This document shows, piece by piece, positions 4,860 through 48,922 of a stretch of DNA of 64,000 nucleotides. The stretch's first letter is position 1. Every line of letters starts with the position of its first letter. A program made the translations under genes and the position numbers. The stretch is from contig NZ_JBKBHM010000002.1 of NCBI RefSeq assembly GCF_046297615.1, positions 91,437 to 155,436 of the forward strand, read 5' to 3'. The notes beneath the pieces were generated by a model that saw only the letters and a program-made list of their open reading frames with translations, was not told the origin of the DNA and ran no database searches. The stretch comes from Limnobacter sp. GTDB taxonomy: Bacteria > Pseudomonadota > Gammaproteobacteria > Burkholderiales > Burkholderiaceae_B.

Positions 4860-4940
4860 TGGCCAGGCGGTGGAATAAGAAACGTCACATTGCTTGGTTA
4901 CACTCTTTCGATTTTTATTTAAACCCACGGAGGCTCCGTA

Positions 4941-40332: not shown

Positions 40333-41379
40333 TCAAAGTGTTTGGGTCAGCACGCAGCGCAGGCTGTGGTTCAGGTTGTCGTCCACATCGTGTTCAATGG
40401 ACAGCACCGCGTTAACGCCCTGGTAAAAACAGGCCTTTGGCCGCACGTGCCCAAACGGAAAGTTGCTCAGTATGGCAGGGGCAGGTTTGTTGCCGAGGCT
40501 TAACTTCTCGTGTACACATGCAATGGCGTCGTTCAGGGCATAACCACCATCGTGCTCATGGGGTTTGGGCTCACTGAACTGGCCGAGAATGATGGCCTTT
40601 TGTTGCTGCAATACACCGGCATGCAGCAACTGCATCAGCATTCGTTCAATCTTGTACACCGGCTCATTCACGTCTTCCAGAATCAGAATGCCGCCTTCCA
40701 TATTTGGCCAATGCGGGGTGCCCAACAGGCTGGTCAACATCACCAAATTGCCGCCCCACGCTGGCCCTTCCAGACGTACCGAGCCCGCCCTGCCTTGGTG
40801 AAAGCCACTGGTCCAAGGCACTTCGACACGGCCTTCAAACACCGCTTCTTCAAAGTGACGGTAGGTGGTGGGCGACACACCTGCCTCATCGCCAAAGTCG
40901 AAACACACCATGGGGCCATGCAAAAGGCGCAGGCTGCTTAAAGCTGCGCTGTCACCCGATGTTTGGGCCAAGCCCAGCCTCGCCAACAAAGGGTCTGCCG
41001 TAGTGTGCTTGGCTTGCAGGTTTCGGCTGGCATTCAACAGCGCCAGTTGCAAGGCGGTCACATCGCTGTGGCCACACAAGGTCAACCCCTGCGCAACCAT
41101 GGCCTCACACCAGCGCTGCAAAGGCATTTGGCCCAACAGTCGGCTTAGGCCGTACCCACCGCGCGAGGCCATGATGGTGGCTGGCCCCGGGTGATGAAAG
41201 GCGGTGTCCAGCGCTGCAAGGCGTTCCTCGTCATTGCCGGCAAAACGATGTACCCGCAGGCGGGTCTGGGGTGTTTCGCTGACTTCGAAGCCAGCCTGTT
41301 GCAAGGCGGCAATGCCACGGTCCAGCGCACTGGCATCGGTCAGCGCACCGCTGGGCGAGCACACCAGAATCTGGTTCAT
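40333..41379 (-). CDS. LD-carboxypeptidase (peptidase S66, LdcA-like)
   Basis: Internal start MNQILVCSPSG.... Motifs seen: SRGGYG, GHSDVT, FPFGH. ATGA overlap with the tadA stop. Confidence 0.8.
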   Translation of the reverse strand: MNQILVCSPSGALTDASALDRGIAALQQAGFEVSETPQTRLRVHRFAGNDEERLAALDTAFHHPGPATIMASRGGYGLSRLLGQMPLQRWCEAMVAQGLTLCGHSDVTALQLALLNASRNLQAKHTTADPLLARLGLAQTSGDSAALSSLRLLHGPMVCFDFGDEAGVSPTTYRHFEEAVFEGRVEVPWTSGFHQGRAGSVRLEGPAWGGNLVMLTSLLGTPHWPNMEGGILILEDVNEPVYKIERMLMQLLHAGVLQQQKAIILGQFSEPKPHEHDGGYALNDAIACVHEKLSLGNKPAPAILSNFPFGHVRPKACFYQGVNAVLSIEHDVDDNLNHSLRCVLTQTL

Positions 41380-42152
41380 AAGTAGTCCTTCCATGGGCGC
41401 ACGGCTTGCCCTCGACAATAGTTCACCACACTCGTCAATACAGCCACCTGACGGGTGGAATCTTCCCACGTGTTCACAGCGCCCGATTCCAACAGGGCTT
41501 CAATCCGTTGCGCCGCCTGTTCAAGCCCAAGCTCAAGCAGGTCTGCTGGCGTGTGAAACCCCAGCCCTTCCAGCAATGCCAGTGTGCCCTTGTTCACATT
41601 CGGCAGGTCAGCCAAGCGGGCCATGTCGCTGACGGCTTGTTCTCGGTCGCTGCGGCGGGCTTTGAAAAAGGCCTGCAGCAGTTGCTGGCTTTCATCGGCC
41701 ATACAACCGCATTCAAAGGTGCAAGGGTGCCAAGCCTCCGACTGCTCCAGCAGGTTCAATGCGTCGTGCAGATTGGTGTTGAAGCGCGATTGCTCAGCGC
41801 CAATCACCACCCTGCCAATTCGAGCATGCAAAATGGCGCCCAGGCACATCAAACAGGGTTGCAGGGTCACATACAAGGTCACATCAGCGCCAAGGCGGCT
41901 GTTGCCCACCTTGGCACAGGCCGCCACGATGGCATTGATTTCCGCATGCCCACACGGGTTGTTGCTGCCCACGGTGGTGTTTTTTCCATGGGCCAGAACG
42001 CGGTCAGTGCCTTGGACCAGCACCGCGCCTATCGGCACTTCTCCACTTTTGGCGGCTTCCTTGGCTTGTCCCAGTGCTACCGCCATCCAAGCCAAGTCAA
42101 CGGAAGACCTCGGCCCATCAGCCTGAAATTCACTGAGACTGAATTTGCTCAC
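41376..42152 (-). CDS. tadA: tRNA-specific adenosine deaminase TadA with an extra C-terminal domain of about 90 aa
   Basis: CGHAEINAI and PCLMCLGAI zinc-binding deaminase motifs. At 258 aa it is clearly longer than a standalone TadA. Confidence 0.85.
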   Translation of the reverse strand: MSKFSLSEFQADGPRSSVDLAWMAVALGQAKEAAKSGEVPIGAVLVQGTDRVLAHGKNTTVGSNNPCGHAEINAIVAACAKVGNSRLGADVTLYVTLQPCLMCLGAILHARIGRVVIGAEQSRFNTNLHDALNLLEQSEAWHPCTFECGCMADESQQLLQAFFKARRSDREQAVSDMARLADLPNVNKGTLALLEGLGFHTPADLLELGLEQAAQRIEALLESGAVNTWEDSTRQVAVLTSVVNYCRGQAVRPWKDYL

Positions 42153-42191
42153 GGTTGCCTCGCCTTGTGACCAGGCTCATGAAATGAGCTT

Positions 42192-42207
42192 GATTATTCC
42201 ACTCGAT
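42192..42207. repeat. Degenerate copy of the guaA 3' terminus (candidate att remnant)
   Basis: gattattcc-actcgat here compares with gatcactcccactcaat at 48921-48937: 13/17 identical with one 1-nt gap. Its reverse complement reads ATCGAGTGG-AATAA, close to an IEWE-stop guaA ending. Confidence 0.3.
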
Positions 42208-42317
42208 CATAAATAGTCAAACAAACCATATAAATCAAAGCCTTACTAAAGGCATCTCAATAAGCGCCTTGAACAATACCATATTCAGCTCCTCAACACT
42301 TGGCTGATCCCAAGGCT

Positions 42318-44924
42318 TCAGGCCAACTTTGCTGCTCCCTGACGCTGCCGAAGGCTGTCCGCCCAGGCCGCCAATGAATCAATCTCTGCCGTCAATGCTT
42401 CTGGCCTCGGTAGAGGACGGTTCAACGCAGCAGCGGCGCTATGCAGCAGTTCAGAACAGCGACCATATCCGTCTCGCATAGCTTCGCAATCGGGAACCGT
42501 GATCGCGGTCAGCTTGACCAAGCCAGGCGTTTTCACCTCATTGGGCAATCGTCTGAGGACATGCCCGACAACTTCTTCAACCGCGATCTCCCACGTATCG
42601 CGCAACGTCGCGGCAATTGATTTGACGGACCTTCGCCATTCGTCGTGATTGCCTTGCTCGAAATGGTAGCGTTCACCCGCAAGCTGATTTCTCAGACTAG
42701 TGGTGATGTCACTAACTCGACGCGCTTTGAATGGCGGTTCGCTGCGGCAAAAGCCTGCCTTGTCAGCACCCCGGCTAATGGAGCTAATGGCAACTGGCGG
42801 CTTAGGCTGCGCATCGTCAGCCGCGCGATTCAACTCGAACAGGAACGCAAGGTCATGAGTGAAAACGATGACCTGGCGATGAGCGGCTTCAGCAACCAAG
42901 CGTTTAGCTACCGCCTCCCGGTGCATGTGGTCGAGCGAAGAAACTGGATCATCAAAGACGATGCTCGACTTATTTTCCGTGGTGGCGAGTTCAGCCATGA
43001 ACGCAGCCAGAGCAACGCAGCGATATTCACCTTCGCTCAGGACCTGCCCCACTGCGGCAGTGGGTTTCCTCGTAAATGCGACCTTGAAGCGGGGAATGCC
43101 CTGAACGCTGTTTTGCTGGCGAAACTCCACGGCAAGGCCAGCGATCTCAAAACTCGCCACCTCACGAGCGAACTGTGCGCGAAGTGCATCAGTCACTAGC
43201 GCCTGTGCGATCTCCGTGCTCTTCGTGGTAGTACGATTAGTGGTTGTGTCGCGTTGGGCCGCCTCAAGCCGCGCGATTTGCTTCTGACGTTCAATTTCAG
43301 CGAGAACATCGGCTTTGATACCATCAAGCCATTTCCGATCCGCAAGCTCGCCTTTTTCGACAAGCAAGGCAGCACGAGCTGGAGAACCCGCCTCAGCAGT
43401 AAGGGCGTTCACCCGAACCTCAACGCCCGCTGCTTGATCGATCAGCGCCTGACGCGAATATTCCGTGACGTGCACGTCAATAGCGGCGCTTGGATTCGCG
43501 TGGCGTCGCCTGATCTGGCGATGACGCCACAGGGCGCGTATGGTCGCGCCCTTGATCGCCAGCGCTAAGGCGTCCTGACGCAGATCGTCGCGGACGGTCG
43601 CCACAATGTCCGCAAGCTCGGCCAACGAAATAGTCTCCCCCTTGAACGTTGCCAGTGCCTGGTCGTACACCAGGCGCGCAGCCACAGCACGTTGCTGGCT
43701 ATCGTCGCGCACAAAAGTCTCGAAGCGATTGAGTCGATCGGCAGCGACGGGCGTCAACTCCTGCTGGCAAAGCACACATACGCAGCCAGGTTCTATGACG
43801 GGGAAGCGCCGTTCAGGATAGGCTTCCATGTCCGAGAATGCCCGGGCACTGGCCCATAGCGTCTGCCAAACCTCCGACCCAATTTGCGGCAGCGGTTCGT
43901 CACGGAAAAGCGCACTGGAAGCAGCTTCTGCTGCCCGGCGCGCGGCATCGCTATCAATGGCATGGCGGCGCAGGTTATCGGCGGTCTCGTCGCCGATCGA
44001 AGCAAACAGCCGGTCCAGGCGCGCAATGTACCCGTCAACCTTGGCCTTCAACGCCGTAAGTTGGCGCGCCGCGCGAGCCGGATCACCCGCCAGGTCCGCC
44101 GCGAGTTGAGCCAATCTGTCTTGCTCTGCTTGCGTCAGCGTGGCCAATGCTTCGACTGTCGCCGGGGCAGTGTTGGCTGTGAGCCTGGCCATGAGCTTAC
44201 CGACCGTTGTGTCCTTCCCGCATGCAGGTGTTCTGATCGCTTCGGGCGTTTGCGCCTTTATCTGCTCAATCTCGGCTGCTAGCTTGTCCTTGATGGACTT
44301 ACAAAGCTGCGCCAACGCACCTAGCAGTTTGAGCGGAAACGGCGTGTAAGCCACGTCGTTCGTATCGTCCACGTGGACGTTCGCGGTACGGGAATCGAAG
44401 ACACTGATGCCGGAAAGTGCAGTGTCGGCAGCCTGTCCAAGCCGCCAAGCGCATGTACGATTCTGCCCGCCGACCGCGTATTCAATCGTGGCGCTGGGCG
44501 TGCCTGGTGCGGCGTCATAGATATCGGGGCCGATCTCCTCGCCTCGGCCATTCATTCGGGCGCGGCATACCTTTTTAAGAATCCGCGCGTAACCAGATTT
44601 TCCCGATCCGTTGTCGCCATAGATGATTGTTAAACCGACACGGTGGAGCGTGAGCTTTTGGTCGGGGGCCAAGGCGTTGACATGCCGGACTCCATGCACT
44701 TGTCGCAGATAGACTTCTCCTTGATCGCGGTTCGGGCCGCGAAGGTGCTCCGCTTCCAGCGGAACTGCCGGATTGTCACCCTTGCAGATGGACGCCAGTT
44801 CGTCGATCTCAGCTGGCCCCAGCGCCGCTTGCGTTGCAAGTCGGCGTAGTGCATCGCGTTGCCAACCCGGACCATCAAAAGACCACGTAAGGATGTTGGC
44901 CAGCGCCTCCGCCTCTGTCGTCAT
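42318..44924 (-). CDS. AAA_13-type (PrrC/RloC-like) coiled-coil ABC ATPase
   Basis: Walker A GDNGSGKS, signature LSEGE, Walker B IVFDDPVSSLD, H-loop VFTHD. A long Ala/Arg/Leu-rich helical insert carries CVCVLCQQEL (CxxCxQxL). The start is placed at ATG 44924 (MTTEAEAL...), which overlaps the stop of the upstream 77-aa ORF. Confidence 0.8.
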   Translation of the reverse strand: MTTEAEALANILTWSFDGPGWQRDALRRLATQAALGPAEIDELASICKGDNPAVPLEAEHLRGPNRDQGEVYLRQVHGVRHVNALAPDQKLTLHRVGLTIIYGDNGSGKSGYARILKKVCRARMNGRGEEIGPDIYDAAPGTPSATIEYAVGGQNRTCAWRLGQAADTALSGISVFDSRTANVHVDDTNDVAYTPFPLKLLGALAQLCKSIKDKLAAEIEQIKAQTPEAIRTPACGKDTTVGKLMARLTANTAPATVEALATLTQAEQDRLAQLAADLAGDPARAARQLTALKAKVDGYIARLDRLFASIGDETADNLRRHAIDSDAARRAAEAASSALFRDEPLPQIGSEVWQTLWASARAFSDMEAYPERRFPVIEPGCVCVLCQQELTPVAADRLNRFETFVRDDSQQRAVAARLVYDQALATFKGETISLAELADIVATVRDDLRQDALALAIKGATIRALWRHRQIRRRHANPSAAIDVHVTEYSRQALIDQAAGVEVRVNALTAEAGSPARAALLVEKGELADRKWLDGIKADVLAEIERQKQIARLEAAQRDTTTNRTTTKSTEIAQALVTDALRAQFAREVASFEIAGLAVEFRQQNSVQGIPRFKVAFTRKPTAAVGQVLSEGEYRCVALAAFMAELATTENKSSIVFDDPVSSLDHMHREAVAKRLVAEAAHRQVIVFTHDLAFLFELNRAADDAQPKPPVAISSISRGADKAGFCRSEPPFKARRVSDITTSLRNQLAGERYHFEQGNHDEWRRSVKSIAATLRDTWEIAVEEVVGHVLRRLPNEVKTPGLVKLTAITVPDCEAMRDGYGRCSELLHSAAAALNRPLPRPEALTAEIDSLAAWADSLRQRQGAAKLA

Positions 44925-45154
44925 ACACCCAAGCCTCTCAATCTGTGTCCACCATCTGTACCATGCTTCTCTAGATAGCGGCTCAAAGCATCGGATAGTA
45001 TCTCCCCTGGCTGCCATCTATAGTGCTCACTAATGCTCTTTGTTCTGACATGAGCAGGTGGAGCGAAATCGTACCCTGTGGCTGCTAATCCGGCTTCCCC
45101 TTCCGTAGTGATGAAAAAAGGTTCAGTTTTGTTGTCTTGGTGCGACTGAGTCAT
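44921..45154 (-). CDS. Small hypothetical protein (77 aa), translationally coupled to the ATPase
   Basis: A strong SD (AAGAGGAAAGAAC) lies immediately upstream of ATG 45154. Its stop TGA overlaps the ATPase ATG (GTATGA). No family was recognised. Confidence 0.45.
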   Translation of the reverse strand: MTQSHQDNKTEPFFITTEGEAGLAATGYDFAPPAHVRTKSISEHYRWQPGEILSDALSRYLEKHGTDGGHRLRGLGV

Positions 45155-45260
45155 GTTCTTTCCTCTTGACGCTCATCTACCTAGCCCCGCCCCCAGGTAT
45201 CGATTGGGATGGCAAAGAGCGGTGCCACCGAACAAATGCGAAACGCAGGAAAGTTATGCT

Positions 45261-46280
45261 TTAACGTGTCTTGTACTCGCGGATACGTGTGTGTTCGGTG
45301 AGAAGGGGCATCGTGGCAAGCGTGAAGACCTTGCCATCGGTAGCCTGCAAGAGCCGGCGCATGTCCTCGCGTCGGACTTTGAAGCCGCGCCCTGCGATGC
45401 AAGCGATAACGTCGTAGTCTTTCCGACTCTCGTCGCGCAACGAGCGCAGACGCTGTACTCGCGCCACCTTGTCGCGGGCAGTGCCGTCGTCCTCGGTCAG
45501 CTTGGCCTCGATTAAGGCAACCGGATTGAACTCGTCGGGTATGATGAAGTCTGGAGCCTGGTCAAAGCCGTTGATGCGCTCTGCGCGCTTGGTCTCACGG
45601 AAGCTCACTTTCGCCGCGGTCAGTACGTCCTTGATGGCTCCCTCAACGACTTCGCCCACGCGCTCGCTCACGGCATCACGGTGCGATGCAAATGGGCGCC
45701 CGAGGAAACGCTCGTATAGCAGGACTGCGTAAGGCACCCCGAGGTCTGCAATCGGCTGCAGGCTTTTGATACCTTCCTTCGTGTCCACCTTGTCGAGTCG
45801 ATGTAAAACGGCGAGATTCTCAGGGCCAGCACCTACCATGAGCGTTTCAACGCCAGCCCTAATCATGGCCCGCAAGCGCTGGTCGGTCAGCGTTGCCCCC
45901 AGAACACGAGGGGTCAGGGGCTTTAGTCGGATGTTTCGGTCCATGGTGCGCGCTGCGCCTTGATCAACTCGCACACCGGTGCGCTCGGTCGTTACGTAGG
46001 CCCACTCAGGCGGGGTGAAACCGAGGATGGCCCTGAAGACGATGAAGGCAATCGGAGCAGCGACTATTGCAGCTTCAACGCTAGCCGTGTTCACGGTGGT
46101 GAAGTCGTTTGTTGCCTTTTTCAGGGTCTGATAACCCTTCTCGAAGGTGGCGTAATCGGTGAAGCCCTCCCCTCTCGGCATTTCGAGAAAACTGGACTGC
46201 AGCTCCCCGAACACTTCATCGACCAGCGCATCAAAAGACAGCGACGGGTCTGCGTAGTCGGCCTCAAAACGTAATGGCAT
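45261..46280 (-). CDS. Putative PD-(D/E)xK restriction endonuclease
   Basis: APDFIIPDEFNPVALIEAKLTEDDGTARDK fits a PD...(D/E)xK core. A GGGGAG SD lies 8 nt upstream of the ATG. The start overlaps the methyltransferase 3' end by 17 nt. Confidence 0.6.
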   Translation of the reverse strand: MPLRFEADYADPSLSFDALVDEVFGELQSSFLEMPRGEGFTDYATFEKGYQTLKKATNDFTTVNTASVEAAIVAAPIAFIVFRAILGFTPPEWAYVTTERTGVRVDQGAARTMDRNIRLKPLTPRVLGATLTDQRLRAMIRAGVETLMVGAGPENLAVLHRLDKVDTKEGIKSLQPIADLGVPYAVLLYERFLGRPFASHRDAVSERVGEVVEGAIKDVLTAAKVSFRETKRAERINGFDQAPDFIIPDEFNPVALIEAKLTEDDGTARDKVARVQRLRSLRDESRKDYDVIACIAGRGFKVRREDMRRLLQATDGKVFTLATMPLLTEHTRIREYKTR

Positions 46281-48456
46281 TGGCTTGCTCCCCGTTCATT
46301 TTGTTATTGCGCTGCATGTCGATTGTTTCAGTCGCCTGCGCTGCATCCAAAACTACGCTAACGTCTTCGACTGTAGCGATGCTGTCCATGGTTAGGCGAA
46401 TGGTCTCCAACTTCTCGGCTGTTGGCCTCGATGAATTCCAGCTCGGCCGCAGCTTCCAAATCGCCATGCGGGAGATATGCCCGAAGGCAATGCATCGGAT
46501 GTCACCAGCCGTCGGTTTCATGCCCGCAGCGGTCAATTCGGCCAGTTCATTCGTCATCAGCGCCGCGAGCTGCGCAGCGTTTTCGACCAGAGTGTGAAGC
46601 GGCGCAGCGATGGTGTCGCGGCAGACAAATACCGTATCGACGATGGATGAGCCGGTGCCGTGAATGTGAATCGAACCGCCCATCTCGGCTGGGCAAGGCA
46701 GAGAAGCCGAGCAGGTCAGGCCCGCATCTAGGATGCCCATGGCCGCTGCAAGATAAGCCTCCTGCTTGTTGTGGTGGTAGGTGAATACTAGCGGTGCACC
46801 CGGCTTGAGGGCTGCAGCCATCCGGCTGTAAACAGCAGCCAAGCCTTCAGCAAAGTGCTCAATGTCGCGCTCCGCCGTCTCGTTGCCGGTTAGCTCGTCA
46901 TGGTGCCGCGTGGTCTCTAGCTCCAAGCCAGGAAACTCCTCGCCCATCAGCTTGCGCAGCCACACATAGCAGAACTGCATCAGCTCTCCGTACTGAACCA
47001 TGCCAAAGTAAGGCGGGTCAGTGAACACAGCATCAAGGCTAAGCGGGGCAAGTTCGGCCTCTGTCGATGAGGAGCAGCGGATGTCGATGGATCGCATTGG
47101 CGCATCGTGCCGGTGTGGGTGCTTTTCCCCAATCCACTCGCCCGAGATGTAGTGTATGGTTTTTTTCTTGCCGTTGAACATTACCTCAAACGGCTCGGTG
47201 CAGTACTCCTTAGCTTTGGTGTACTTCTCCGTAATATTAACCCATCCACCGGAGCCGACAGGCTTGCCTCCCCCGTTGCGAATGCCGAGAAAGTTGGACT
47301 CCACTTGTACATAGCCCACAGGGAACCCATGAATCGAGAACACGTCCAGCGACTTAAGCGCCATCGTGTCGTATCGGCACAGCATGTTCTGGTAGCGCAA
47401 TAGATCGGAAAAATTGGTAGCCAGCGCGCGGCGTACACGCTGATCTTTCACGCCTGCGATGAAGCGAGCGCTGGTCTCCAGCGCAAGAAGCTGCCGAGAG
47501 TTGAACAATTCGCGGAAGCGCTCATAGCCCCAACGGTGCAGGCGTGAGCTTTCGTCGCCCTCGGGGATAAGGTCATCAGGCACGAAGGATGGGTGCATCC
47601 GCTTCCATGCCCCCGCTGCTGCTTCAGCGCGCGCCAGGTCATCAGCATCGGGTTTCTTGAACAATCGCCCTGGCCGGTCTCGAAGGTCGGGGTTATAGTA
47701 CTCCATCGCGAAGAGCCGATGTGTCGGCGGACCTTCACCTTGGAACGGTGTGGCGTTCACATGCCCACAGTGCGGGCAGACACATTTGTTGCGCTTCACC
47801 GGGCCTTCTGTCTTGAGCTGCACGCCGCAGCCACACTTTCCAGGGTTTTTGGGGTCAGCAACCTCGTTGAGGTCGCCGCAGGAGTGGCACACAAGAACAT
47901 AGGCTGGGTGCCGGGAATTCTCGGCCACTGTGTAGCCAGGGAACAGGTCGAAGCCACTGCCGCAGGCGCTACAGATACCTGTTTTGACCCACAGAAAATA
48001 TTTGACATCGGCATCTGGACGGCCAGTCACCGGGCAGCGCGTCTTGTAGAGCTCGCCAATCGCCTGCTCAAGGTGCTGGGCTAAGAGGGTGGTTGCCTTC
48101 GCGTAGGCTCCGAGATCGAGCGCGTCGATTTCCTCGCGCACTACCCAAGCTGACATCGGATTGATGTCCAATCCGACGACGTTGCAACCCAGCCGGTTCG
48201 CCTCCAACAGCGGCGTCCCACCACCCATGAACGGGTCCGCGACGATTCGCCCCTCGAAATGGTTATTGTTGTAGTAAGTGTGCTCGACGTACTCGTTTCC
48301 AAACTCCGACAGGATCAAGCCGCGAAAAAGCGTGCCCGGCCTACGGGCAAACCACTTATGTACAGCGATGATCGGCCGGTAATTCTGTTGAATCTGCTTC
48401 TCGCGCAGCGCAAGCGCTGCGATGAATCTGATGCTGTAGTTATCTTCGATGCTCAT
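46264..48456 (-). CDS. DNA methyltransferase (N6-A/N4-C type) with a DUF1156-like N-terminus and two zinc ribbons
   Basis: HKWFARRP motif, ADPFMGGGT (motif I) and FTDPPYF (motif IV). There are two CxxC...CxxC clusters between them. The start is placed at ATG 48456 (MSIEDNY...). Confidence 0.8.
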   Translation of the reverse strand: MSIEDNYSIRFIAALALREKQIQQNYRPIIAVHKWFARRPGTLFRGLILSEFGNEYVEHTYYNNNHFEGRIVADPFMGGGTPLLEANRLGCNVVGLDINPMSAWVVREEIDALDLGAYAKATTLLAQHLEQAIGELYKTRCPVTGRPDADVKYFLWVKTGICSACGSGFDLFPGYTVAENSRHPAYVLVCHSCGDLNEVADPKNPGKCGCGVQLKTEGPVKRNKCVCPHCGHVNATPFQGEGPPTHRLFAMEYYNPDLRDRPGRLFKKPDADDLARAEAAAGAWKRMHPSFVPDDLIPEGDESSRLHRWGYERFRELFNSRQLLALETSARFIAGVKDQRVRRALATNFSDLLRYQNMLCRYDTMALKSLDVFSIHGFPVGYVQVESNFLGIRNGGGKPVGSGGWVNITEKYTKAKEYCTEPFEVMFNGKKKTIHYISGEWIGEKHPHRHDAPMRSIDIRCSSSTEAELAPLSLDAVFTDPPYFGMVQYGELMQFCYVWLRKLMGEEFPGLELETTRHHDELTGNETAERDIEHFAEGLAAVYSRMAAALKPGAPLVFTYHHNKQEAYLAAAMGILDAGLTCSASLPCPAEMGGSIHIHGTGSSIVDTVFVCRDTIAAPLHTLVENAAQLAALMTNELAELTAAGMKPTAGDIRCIAFGHISRMAIWKLRPSWNSSRPTAEKLETIRLTMDSIATVEDVSVVLDAAQATETIDMQRNNKMNGEQANAITF

Positions 48457-48922
48457 GGCCTGCTTATTATGTTCGGTGGCACTACACCACAGTGCTTGTG
48501 GATCTTCCGCGATACACCACAATGGAAAGCCTAGTCGGCGATATAGAGACCTTCACGGTCCTTTTCCTTGTAGAGCTTGTCTCTCAGCTTCAGGTAACAC
48601 AGCTTGGTATCGGGCAGTATGGTATTCCCCCTGATTGGCTCCGAATACCATGATCTGGGAGTAATCTACCCTGAGATAAAAACATAATGAAATCAATTTT
48701 TTGAGGTTTATAAATACCGCGATTTCCAAAAAATGGCTACCTGATATCGATAACATCTCATGGCACCAAAACATTCAATGCCTGTCATCATGCCATGACA
48801 AAACAGTGATTGGCGGTGCCAAAGATTGCCGGCCAATACCTTACACGATTACAAAAATCCCGCGGCTGCCTGAGTAGTTGTGTTCTCGTGCTACTAAGTG
48901 CCAGCCACGACTAGACGCCGGA

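Follow-up and report, generated by a model that had tools for sequence, protein, structure and literature searches.

RloC proteins were defined by Davidov and Kaufmann in 2008 through a screen that combined ABC motifs, a CXXC sequence and the arrangement Arg-X3-Glu-X36-52-His (PMC2610378). The proteins of Geobacillus and Acinetobacter are the only RloC proteins that have been tested experimentally (PMC2610378). The Geobacillus protein, GkaRloC, cleaves the anticodon loop of tRNA with excision of the wobble nucleotide, is activated by ATP and DNA and is silenced by its zinc hook, and mutation of its triad abolishes both nuclease activity and toxicity (PMC2610378). In the survey of 2008, eight of the 72 RloC genes were situated in restriction-modification (R-M) loci (PMC2610378). 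PrrC carries the triad Arg320/Glu324/His356 (PMC2610378), and both PrrC and RloC were assigned to HEPN by Anantharaman et al. (PMC3710099). In this work we analyzed a 64,000-nt stretch of Limnobacter sp. DNA (contig NZ_JBKBHM010000002.1, positions 91,437 to 155,436; hereafter the window) and describe a minus-strand gene at 42318-44924 encoding an ABC ATPase that very probably belongs to the RloC clade of defense proteins.

Gene Start and Domain Architecture of the ATPase

Residue numbers refer to the 899-aa open reading frame (ORF) starting at nt 45017 unless 868-aa numbering is indicated. The gene and the parts of its product are the following.

42318..44924, minus strand: RloC-like ABC ATPase gene, 868 aa plus stop, start at M32 of the 899-aa ORF
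44742..44924, minus strand: N-terminal 3-helix domain, residues 32-92, predicted helices 4-15, 20-31 and 37-48 (868-aa numbering)
44595..44618, minus strand: Walker A GDNGSGKS, residues 134-141; G134, G139 and K140 invariant
43152..44339, minus strand: segmented coiled-coil insert of ~400 aa in the ABC head, predicted helices 196-591 (868-aa numbering)
43755-43784, minus strand: CVCVLCQQEL, residues 412-421
43767..43778, minus strand: CxxC zinc-hook motif C414-V-L-C417 at the coiled-coil apex
42852..43040, minus strand: region of LSEGE, IVFDDPVSSLD and VFTHD
43026-43040, minus strand: LSEGE (ABC signature), residues 660-664
42930-42962, minus strand: IVFDDPVSSLD (Walker B/D-loop), residues 686-696
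42852-42866, minus strand: VFTHD (H-loop), residues 718-722
42321..42743, minus strand: C-terminal all-alpha domain, residues 759-899, ~140 aa, a putative HEPN-like RNase effector
42600-42602, minus strand: codon of R806, within LRDTWE (residues 805-810)
42588-42590, minus strand: codon of E810
42441-42443, minus strand: codon of H859, within LLHS (residues 857-860)

The minus-strand ORF as called (42318-45017) encodes 899 aa. Since nearly all of the 120 homologues among the matches listed are ~868 aa long, and since the stop codon of a conserved upstream ORF overlaps the M32 start codon as ATGA, the true start is M32 at nt 44924, and the start at nt 45017 was rejected as an ORF-calling artefact. 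An earlier note on this DNA had given 44924 as the end coordinate of the gene, which is indeed the actual start codon, and had numbered residues from 45017, which is not the gene start. Counted from that position, its numbers for R806, E810 and H859 are correct, with His at +49 from Glu.

Each quoted motif occurs once in the protein. GDNGSGKS and IVFDDPVSSLD lie exactly at the positions assigned to them in the earlier note (44595-44618 and 42930-42962), and LSEGE and VFTHD were located as well. The CVCVLCQQEL motif is present too, although the interval previously quoted for it, 43767-43784, spans CVCVLC alone. The ABC motifs (GDNGSGKS, LSEGE, IVFDDPVSSLD and VFTHD) are invariant or nearly so across the homologue alignment.

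The full-length AlphaFold2 (AF2) model, built on an alignment of 72 sequences, has a mean pLDDT of 86.8, and its best Foldseek matches are Rad50, cohesin, condensin, SMC and JetC. The helical insert, formerly put at ~500 aa, comprises ~400 aa in this model. The hook cysteines C414 and C417 (C383/C386 in 868-aa numbering), both invariant in the 72 sequences, are at a turn between AF2 helices 351-368 and 392-429. After the coiled coil the second half of the ABC head resumes and is followed by a five-helix C-terminal domain (737-864 in 868-aa numbering). The protein is a Rad50/SMC-like ABC ATPase with intact catalytic motifs and a ~400-aa coiled coil capped by CxxC.

In Pfam, AAA_13 (PF13166) matches with 64.1 bits against a cut-off of 36 and aligns residues 414-775 with profile positions 258-608 of 713, stopping short of the tail. 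AAA_13 and SMC_N are the only families that Pfam sees in the protein, and there are weak profile matches to RecF and SMC_N. Searching the PDB sequences with the whole protein revealed no relative of solved structure; the best were marginal SMC3 matches.

The ~100 aa preceding the P-loop, reported before as one region without a family, are divided in the AF2 model. About 60 aa of them do form a separate 3-helix domain, while the remainder consists of strands of the ABC head. The conserved residues of this domain are W45, W52, A56, L57 and R58, and scans of Pfam, NCBIfam and PADLOC found no family for it except PDC-S06. Canonical RloC has its Walker A motif at residues 36-43, and the 3-helix domain is absent there.

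Relationship to RloC

The Limnobacter protein possesses all the features used in the 2008 screen: the ABC motifs, the CXXC sequence and the arrangement R806-X3-E810-X48-H859. Comparison with PrrC had led to the remark that the His lies further away here (+49 against +32). This is correct, and the X48 spacing falls inside the RloC family range of X36-52.

The orthologue list of the same study contains, as entry 30 of Table S1, a Sphingomonas wittichii RW1 protein of 881 aa with a carbamoyltransferase as its neighbor. Swit_4992, encoded by plasmid pSWIT02, is exactly 881 aa long and directly follows a carbamoyltransferase gene; it thus matches entry 30 by organism, length and neighbor. BLASTP aligned the Limnobacter protein with Swit_4992 end to end (31% identity, E=2e-96) with the Arg, Glu and His residues aligned. 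The alignment takes in the N-terminal domain, the CVLCQQ hook, LRDTYE and the ...SH sequence, in which Ser precedes His, and Swit_4992 matches the same PADLOC hidden Markov model (HMM) as the Limnobacter protein. Because Swit_4992 matches entry 30 and aligns over its entire length, this clade was already counted among the RloC orthologues in 2008.

The PADLOC model in question, PDLC04891 of PDC-S06, covers residues 39-892 with its positions 4-856 of 858 (E=1.5e-184); the papers mentioning PDC-S06 contain no experimental characterization of it. The protein is catalogued as PADLOC PDC-S06, and the 2008 study placed its clade with RloC; it is therefore no new category.

To compare it with canonical RloC, we used the proteins that JGI names 'wobble nucleotide-excising tRNase', retrieved by a search seeded with P0271. 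P0271 is a fragment 29% identical to the GkaRloC sequence obtained from a figure by optical character recognition, which is unreliable, and it served only as a bridge. The canonical RloC nuclease profile consists of Bacteroidota members. Canonical RloC is also placed under PDC-S06, via a different set of HMMs (PDLC04886, 04887, 04890 and 04894-04898), whereas the Limnobacter-type clade matches 04888 and 04891-04893. PDC-S06 (PDLC04886-04898) thus comprises at least two groups, which cross-match in the ATPase region only. It should be added that the match of HMM 04892 to the Limnobacter protein ends at residue 728, a hint that C-terminal domains have been swapped between sub-clades.

The two groups share an ABC head split by a coiled coil that bears a CxxC hook at its apex, the combination of sensor and putative effector in a single polypeptide, a mobile and patchy distribution and the PDC-S06 umbrella. 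They also share a C-terminal all-alpha domain in which R-x3-E is followed ~40-50 residues later by an invariant His with a basic residue 5-6 positions before it. The linear layouts are alike: R695-x3-E699...R733-x6-H740 in canonical RloC and R806-x3-E810...K/R853-x5-H859 here. At the same time, their C-terminal domains are not detectably homologous by HMM or profile-profile comparison, the Limnobacter-type clade has the extra N-terminal 3-helix domain of ~65 aa, ~70% of its loci are linked in cis to R-M genes versus 8/72 for RloC overall (PMC2610378), and the closest relatives of the Limnobacter gene carry a translationally coupled 77-aa ORF.

We therefore consider the protein a divergent RloC-type variant representing a distinct clade of ~868-aa proteins, set apart by a tail that nuclease models do not recognize, its N-terminal domain, R-M linkage in cis and the coupled small ORF. 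None of these four features was found described for RloC in the literature searched.

Conservation of an Arg/Glu/His Set in the C-Terminal Domain

The R-x3-E...H pattern alone carries no meaning, because the bare pattern R-x3-E-x36-52-H turns up in 27% of shuffled 170-aa tails. Its conservation was assessed across 71 aligned homologues, the majority of which share just 29-55% identity with the query. Both R806 and H859 are invariant in these sequences and E810 is conserved in at least 95% (97% in 65 sequences). Only six positions of the tail reach at least 95% conservation, R806, W809, E810, R823, D843 and H859; they are the only invariant residues of the domain, and we group them as polar. 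R806, E810 and E814 form an i/i+4/i+8 polar stripe along one helix. Of 65 sequences, 30 have R and 19 have K at position 853, which is at -6 from H859, giving a basic-x5-His motif; H859 is directly preceded by L858, and a conserved Ser (S855) is at -4.

Judged from sequence, a purely structural helical tail would be expected to keep hydrophobic residues rather than a charged and polar Arg/Glu/His set. The charged and polar nature of the invariant residues, together with the R806/E810/E814 stripe, counts against the alternative raised in the earlier note that this region is only the generic AAA_13 helical tail.

The domain is widespread. A search of 1.84 billion representatives with the tail alone yielded 729 clusters at 50% identity, and in full-length matches (proteins of ~860-900 aa) the tail is always C-terminal.

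Is the Tail a Nuclease?

We favor, with a confidence somewhat above even, the reading that the protein is a RloC-type 'second-line' anti-phage effector whose tail acts as the RNase. RNase activity is inferred only, because HMM and profile comparisons fail to link the tail to known nucleases and its fold matches are weak.

The AF2 model of residues 759-899 alone is an all-alpha domain of five helices (pLDDT 94.7, pTM 0.87). The 50 top Foldseek matches in PDB are up-down helical bundles, ten of them HEPN proteins with TM scores of 0.33-0.51. These include 2hsb (E=0.078), 1wol, 1o3u, 3o10 and 1ufb as well as the HepT entries 7bxo, 6m6w and 6m6u (TM up to 0.51). The likeness to HEPN RNases (HepT) and the HEPN domains of AF_0298, TM0613 and sacsin extends to a helical bundle of ~130-140 aa, to a conserved basic-x5-His close to where the third long helix ends, to a conserved acidic residue on an earlier helix and to the recurrence of HEPN structures among the best fold matches. 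It is limited by the significance of the best match (E=0.06-0.08), by conservation of the motif Arg in just 46% of sequences and by the lack of a Pfam HEPN match. These fold matches are compatible with the HEPN assignment without demonstrating it. The Foldseek comparison proposed in the earlier note thus produced weak four-helix bundles, some of them HEPN (E>=0.06), and no significant match.

Several observations weigh against the tail being an RNase of this kind. Profile-profile alignment (hhalign) of the C-terminal domain with that of canonical RloC gave a probability of 0.2%; in the full-length comparison only the part from the signature to the H-loop region was aligned, with 94% probability. 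The PADLOC PrrC HMM aligns through the nuclease domain of canonical RloC, whose consensus tail NNMRKFLE...RVINEYSH contains R-x3-E and, ~40 residues on, R-x6-H, but in the Limnobacter protein it covers ATPase residues 635-725 only and not the tail. Profile methods therefore do not recognize the tail as a member of the RloC/PrrC nuclease domain. No match in PDB had E<=0.001 in Foldseek (all E>=0.06, TM 0.3-0.51), and the other matches among the top 50 were FAT/PAT, alpha-catenin, cytochrome b562 and designed four-helix bundles. The tail has no Pfam match, including to the Pfam HEPN models; in Pfam, NCBIfam and PADLOC scans it alone matches only PDC-S06 HMMs, and a search of PDB sequences with the tail profile found no relative. 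At the basic position of the putative Rx4-6H motif just 46% of sequences have Arg and 29% have Lys, and the Ser directly before His, which is frequent though not obligatory in RloC (PMC2610378), is absent in the Limnobacter protein (L858). Finally, JGI names the clade 'EcfA2' rather than RloC, and no experimental test of any of its members was found in the literature searched. A fold search of the tail in BFVD also gave nothing.

The earlier suggestion of a divergent RloC-like protein therefore holds as far as the features of the 2008 screen and the homology to Swit_4992 are concerned. A tail homologous to the PrrC/RloC RNase is not supported by the HMM, hhalign (0.2%), Pfam and Foldseek results, and the alignment with the anticodon nuclease domains that had been put forward as a check revealed no link, the PrrC HMM stopping at the ATPase.

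Comparison With PrrC and Rad50/SMC Proteins

PrrC resembles the Limnobacter protein in having an ABC ATPase N-terminal domain and a C-terminal R-x3-E...H domain, and in being encoded inside or beside an R-M locus, where it is a back-up when restriction fails. However, PrrC has ~400 aa and lacks a coiled coil and zinc hook, whereas the Limnobacter protein has 868 aa; in PrrC the His lies at +32, here at +49; and PrrC is always located within a type Ic hsd locus, which silences it, while the neighbors here are not hsdMSR. Identity with PrrC was rejected on account of architecture (868 aa, ~400-aa insert) and context (a DUF1156-like methyltransferase and a PD-ExK protein).

With Rad50, SbcC and SMC proteins, including JetC of Wadjet and LmuB of Lamassu, the protein shares the ABC head, the antiparallel coiled coil and the CxxC hook; they are the best structural matches of the full model, and there is a weak match to the LmuB HMM. 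In contrast to them, its coiled coil is much shorter, C-terminal effector-like and N-terminal 3-helix domains are fused to it, and no gene for Mre11, a kleisin or an effector subunit was found near the ATPase. Hma, MADS and Lamassu were rejected as identities, since PADLOC gave just local ATPase or methyltransferase matches to them.

Linkage of the ATPase to Restriction-Modification Genes

The order of minus-strand genes in the window is guaA, a DUF1156-related methyltransferase, a 339-aa protein, the 77-aa ORF, the ATPase and a tadA-like deaminase. The ATPase is the last gene of an operon-like string (methyltransferase, probable PD-ExK nuclease, 77-aa ORF, ATPase), whose other members are as follows.

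46264..48522, minus strand: DUF1156-related DNA methyltransferase, likely start M23 at nt 48456, ~730 aa
45261..46280, minus strand: 339-aa protein, probable PD-(D/E)xK restriction endonuclease, motif IIPD...EAK read from the sequence
44921..45154, minus strand: conserved 77-aa ORF, its stop overlapping the ATPase start codon (ATGA)

The string occupies an island of ~6.7 kb (42153-48922) between guaA and the tadA-like gene. The island has no integrase, no att-like direct repeats were found flanking 42.2-48.9 kb, and scans for promoters, terminators and repeats gave counts not above those in shuffled sequence.

The methyltransferase matches Pfam N6_N4_Mtase, DUF1156 below the gathering cut-off, PADLOC HmaB (3e-23) and, far under the curated cut-off, NCBIfam DUF1156_antiphage (3e-26). 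Its homologue in locus L012 has 730 aa, and a methyltransferase 30% identical to it is present on the Acidiphilium plasmid pACMV2. Between the 339-aa gene and the methyltransferase gene there is an overlap of 17 nt. The 339-aa protein had no significant match to any family or to PDB, and its nuclease call is based only on the PD...EAK motif. The two proteins are probably a type II-like R-M pair. This pair was rejected as a fixed partner of the ATPase, being shared by one of 51 loci (L012).

To characterize the context more broadly, 51 homologous loci from reference genomes were surveyed, 36 of which have at least 3 kb of upstream sequence. In 25-27 of the 36 a methyltransferase or restriction module is located directly upstream, usually on the same strand and with short gaps; the loci without such a module represent conjugation or housekeeping contexts. 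The upstream modules belong to at least ten types.

MmeI-like methyltransferase, PLD, helicase and T5orf172: 10 loci
Eco57I-like fusion of ~1050 aa: 3 loci
Eco57I methyltransferase and T5orf172-ResIII: 3 loci
C5 methyltransferase and Eco29kI: 3 loci, plus 1 on the opposite strand
Methyltransferase and 339-aa protein, as in the window: 1 locus
Type I-like; type III-like; Dam-like; N6 methyltransferase; BglII; SNF2 and DUF4391: 1 locus each

The most frequent module, found directly upstream of the ATPase in L001 (2603-9708) and also in L002, L004, L013-L016, L022, L040 and L042, is a recurrent set of four genes encoding a MmeI-like methyltransferase (~930 aa), a PLD-like protein (~350 aa), a DEAD/ResIII helicase (~700 aa) and a T5orf172/MUG113 protein (~420 aa). 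No PADLOC HMM matched the T5orf172 protein, and the module may be an uncatalogued restriction system.

Homologues of the ATPase with 77-93% identity were found in Xanthomonas, Bordetella, Pseudomonas, Acidithiobacillus, Burkholderia and Sphingobium and on conjugative plasmids. Since such close homologues span several proteobacterial classes and conjugative plasmids, the gene is mobile. In about six of the 51 loci it is split into two ORFs or truncated (L034, L035, L042, L046, L048 and L032), which fits a costly or toxic gene.

Several homologous loci also adjoin guaA (L002, L006, L018, L024 and L042, grouped with the island of the window), and the 2008 table gives GMP synthase as the neighbor of Acinetobacter ADP1 RloC. 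Such defense cassettes appear to land repeatedly in the region downstream of guaA. On the other side of the island, the tadA-like deaminase (41376-42152, minus strand, 258 aa) has a C-terminal extension of ~80 aa with weak matches to TfoX_C and Cdd1 (helix-hairpin-helix-like), unusual for a tRNA adenosine deaminase. Swit_4992 lies beside genes (L052 9745-15420, on pSWIT02) for an HD phosphohydrolase, an Abi-family protein, a metallophosphoesterase and a second ABC ATPase of 881 aa with GajA/PtuA-like N-terminal matches; these neighbors make up a small plasmid-borne defense island.

A Conserved 77-aa ORF Is Coupled to the ATPase Gene

In the nine loci holding the closest ATPase homologues the 77-aa ORF is intact, 42-57% identical and in the same position, and its end invariably overlaps the ATPase start as ATGA. 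Its substitutions are distributed over the codon positions as 680/671/1176, with an excess at the third. For the homologue on pACMV2, RefSeq gives a hypothetical protein of 74 aa whose gene overlaps by 4 nt. Family scans gave no match for the 77-aa ORF. In many, more distant members of the clade it is missing, and the upstream gene there abuts the ATPase. It accompanies the ATPase even where the R-M contexts differ; in this sub-clade, therefore, a two-gene cassette is the unit that moves. As a speculation, its product may be a silencer, adaptor, partner or regulator.

Alternative Explanations

The tail could be non-catalytic and serve as a regulatory or docking domain, much as Rad50/SMC heads bind Mre11 or kleisin, so that a DNA-sensing ATPase would work via another nuclease (the restriction neighbor, or a partner bound to the polar patch or to the 77-aa protein). 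We consider this possible, though somewhat unlikely. It would agree with the tight linkage of the gene to R-M nucleases, but the upstream modules have no protein in common, which makes a specific docking partner unlikely, and about one quarter of the loci have no such module. Coupling of the ATPase to a small ORF would likewise suit a docking model, if this ORF were not missing in many members of the clade. The tail has no detectable homology to any nuclease family and protein-binding bundles such as FAT and alpha-catenin score equal to the HEPN matches; nevertheless, catalysis is what an invariant Arg/Glu/His/Asp set on the surface of a helix more typically points to, and the same motif is catalytic in GkaRloC (PMC2610378).

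In a variant of the favored model, which appears unlikely to us, the tail would be a nuclease or another toxin but not an anticodon nuclease, cleaving mRNA, rRNA or DNA or binding nucleotides. Both indiscriminate mRNases and binders without catalytic activity are known among HEPN domains (PMC3710099), the divergence of the tail from the PrrC/RloC nuclease is too great for substrate specificity to be inherited by homology, and the invariant D843 and R823 have no stated counterpart in the classical triad. Still, the only experimentally studied relatives of the same architecture cut tRNA anticodon loops (PMC2610378), and no sign of a metal-dependent DNase fold was seen in the sequence. It is very improbable that the protein is a housekeeping DNA-repair ATPase of the SbcC/RecN kind with no role in defense. 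Its structural likeness to Rad50 and SMC and the weak RecF and SMC_N profile matches would be expected of such an enzyme, but not its patchy horizontal spread at 77-93% identity across genera and conjugative plasmids, its position in a three- to four-gene island behind an R-M pair between guaA and tadA or its status as a PADLOC defense candidate; moreover, no Mre11/SbcD partner was found near it.

Possible Mechanism

If the tail is the RNase effector, as we favor, the protein may act by analogy with Geobacillus RloC. Its dimer would be kept silent by the zinc hook, and possibly also by the 77-aa protein, and would sense a signal at the DNA level, either DNA ends or the failure or inhibition of restriction. 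ATP binding or hydrolysis would then release the C-terminal domains, and the freed tails could act as a metal-independent HEPN-like RNase. Its putative active site would bring together R806/E810 from helix 2 and K/R853-x5-H859, located where helix 3 ends. Such an RNase would cut tRNA anticodon loops, stop translation and abort the infection. The linkage to R-M genes suggests that the trigger is related to restriction, namely to its inhibition or to the DNA ends that it makes.

A more specific proposal, unlikely as a whole and made here tentatively, is that the tail is an unrecognized RNase domain (a HEPN branch diverged past detection, or an independent Arg/Glu/His site) which together with the 77-aa protein forms a portable toxin-silencer cassette. 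Such a cassette could attach downstream of essentially any type of R-M system and would fire upon inhibition of this system or on DNA ends that restriction makes or leaves uncleared. If true, it would be a generic 'R-M failure alarm', unlike PrrC with its single-enzyme partnership.

Implications

RloC has been assumed to act alone via an internal switch, and PrrC is tied to one specific type I enzyme. The clade described here is intermediate, since it has the RloC architecture yet habitually follows R-M systems of many unrelated kinds. How a Rad50-like sensor can guard restriction generally could therefore be tested with this clade. If its tail is an RNase, this nuclease domain has been missed by current HMM libraries. 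The clade is widespread, with its tail in the 729 clusters and members in Pseudomonas, Burkholderia, Xanthomonas and conjugative plasmids, and current annotation goes no further than 'AAA family ATPase' or PADLOC candidate status. Assigning it a function would thus re-label many genomes and bear on predictions of resistance to phage therapy.

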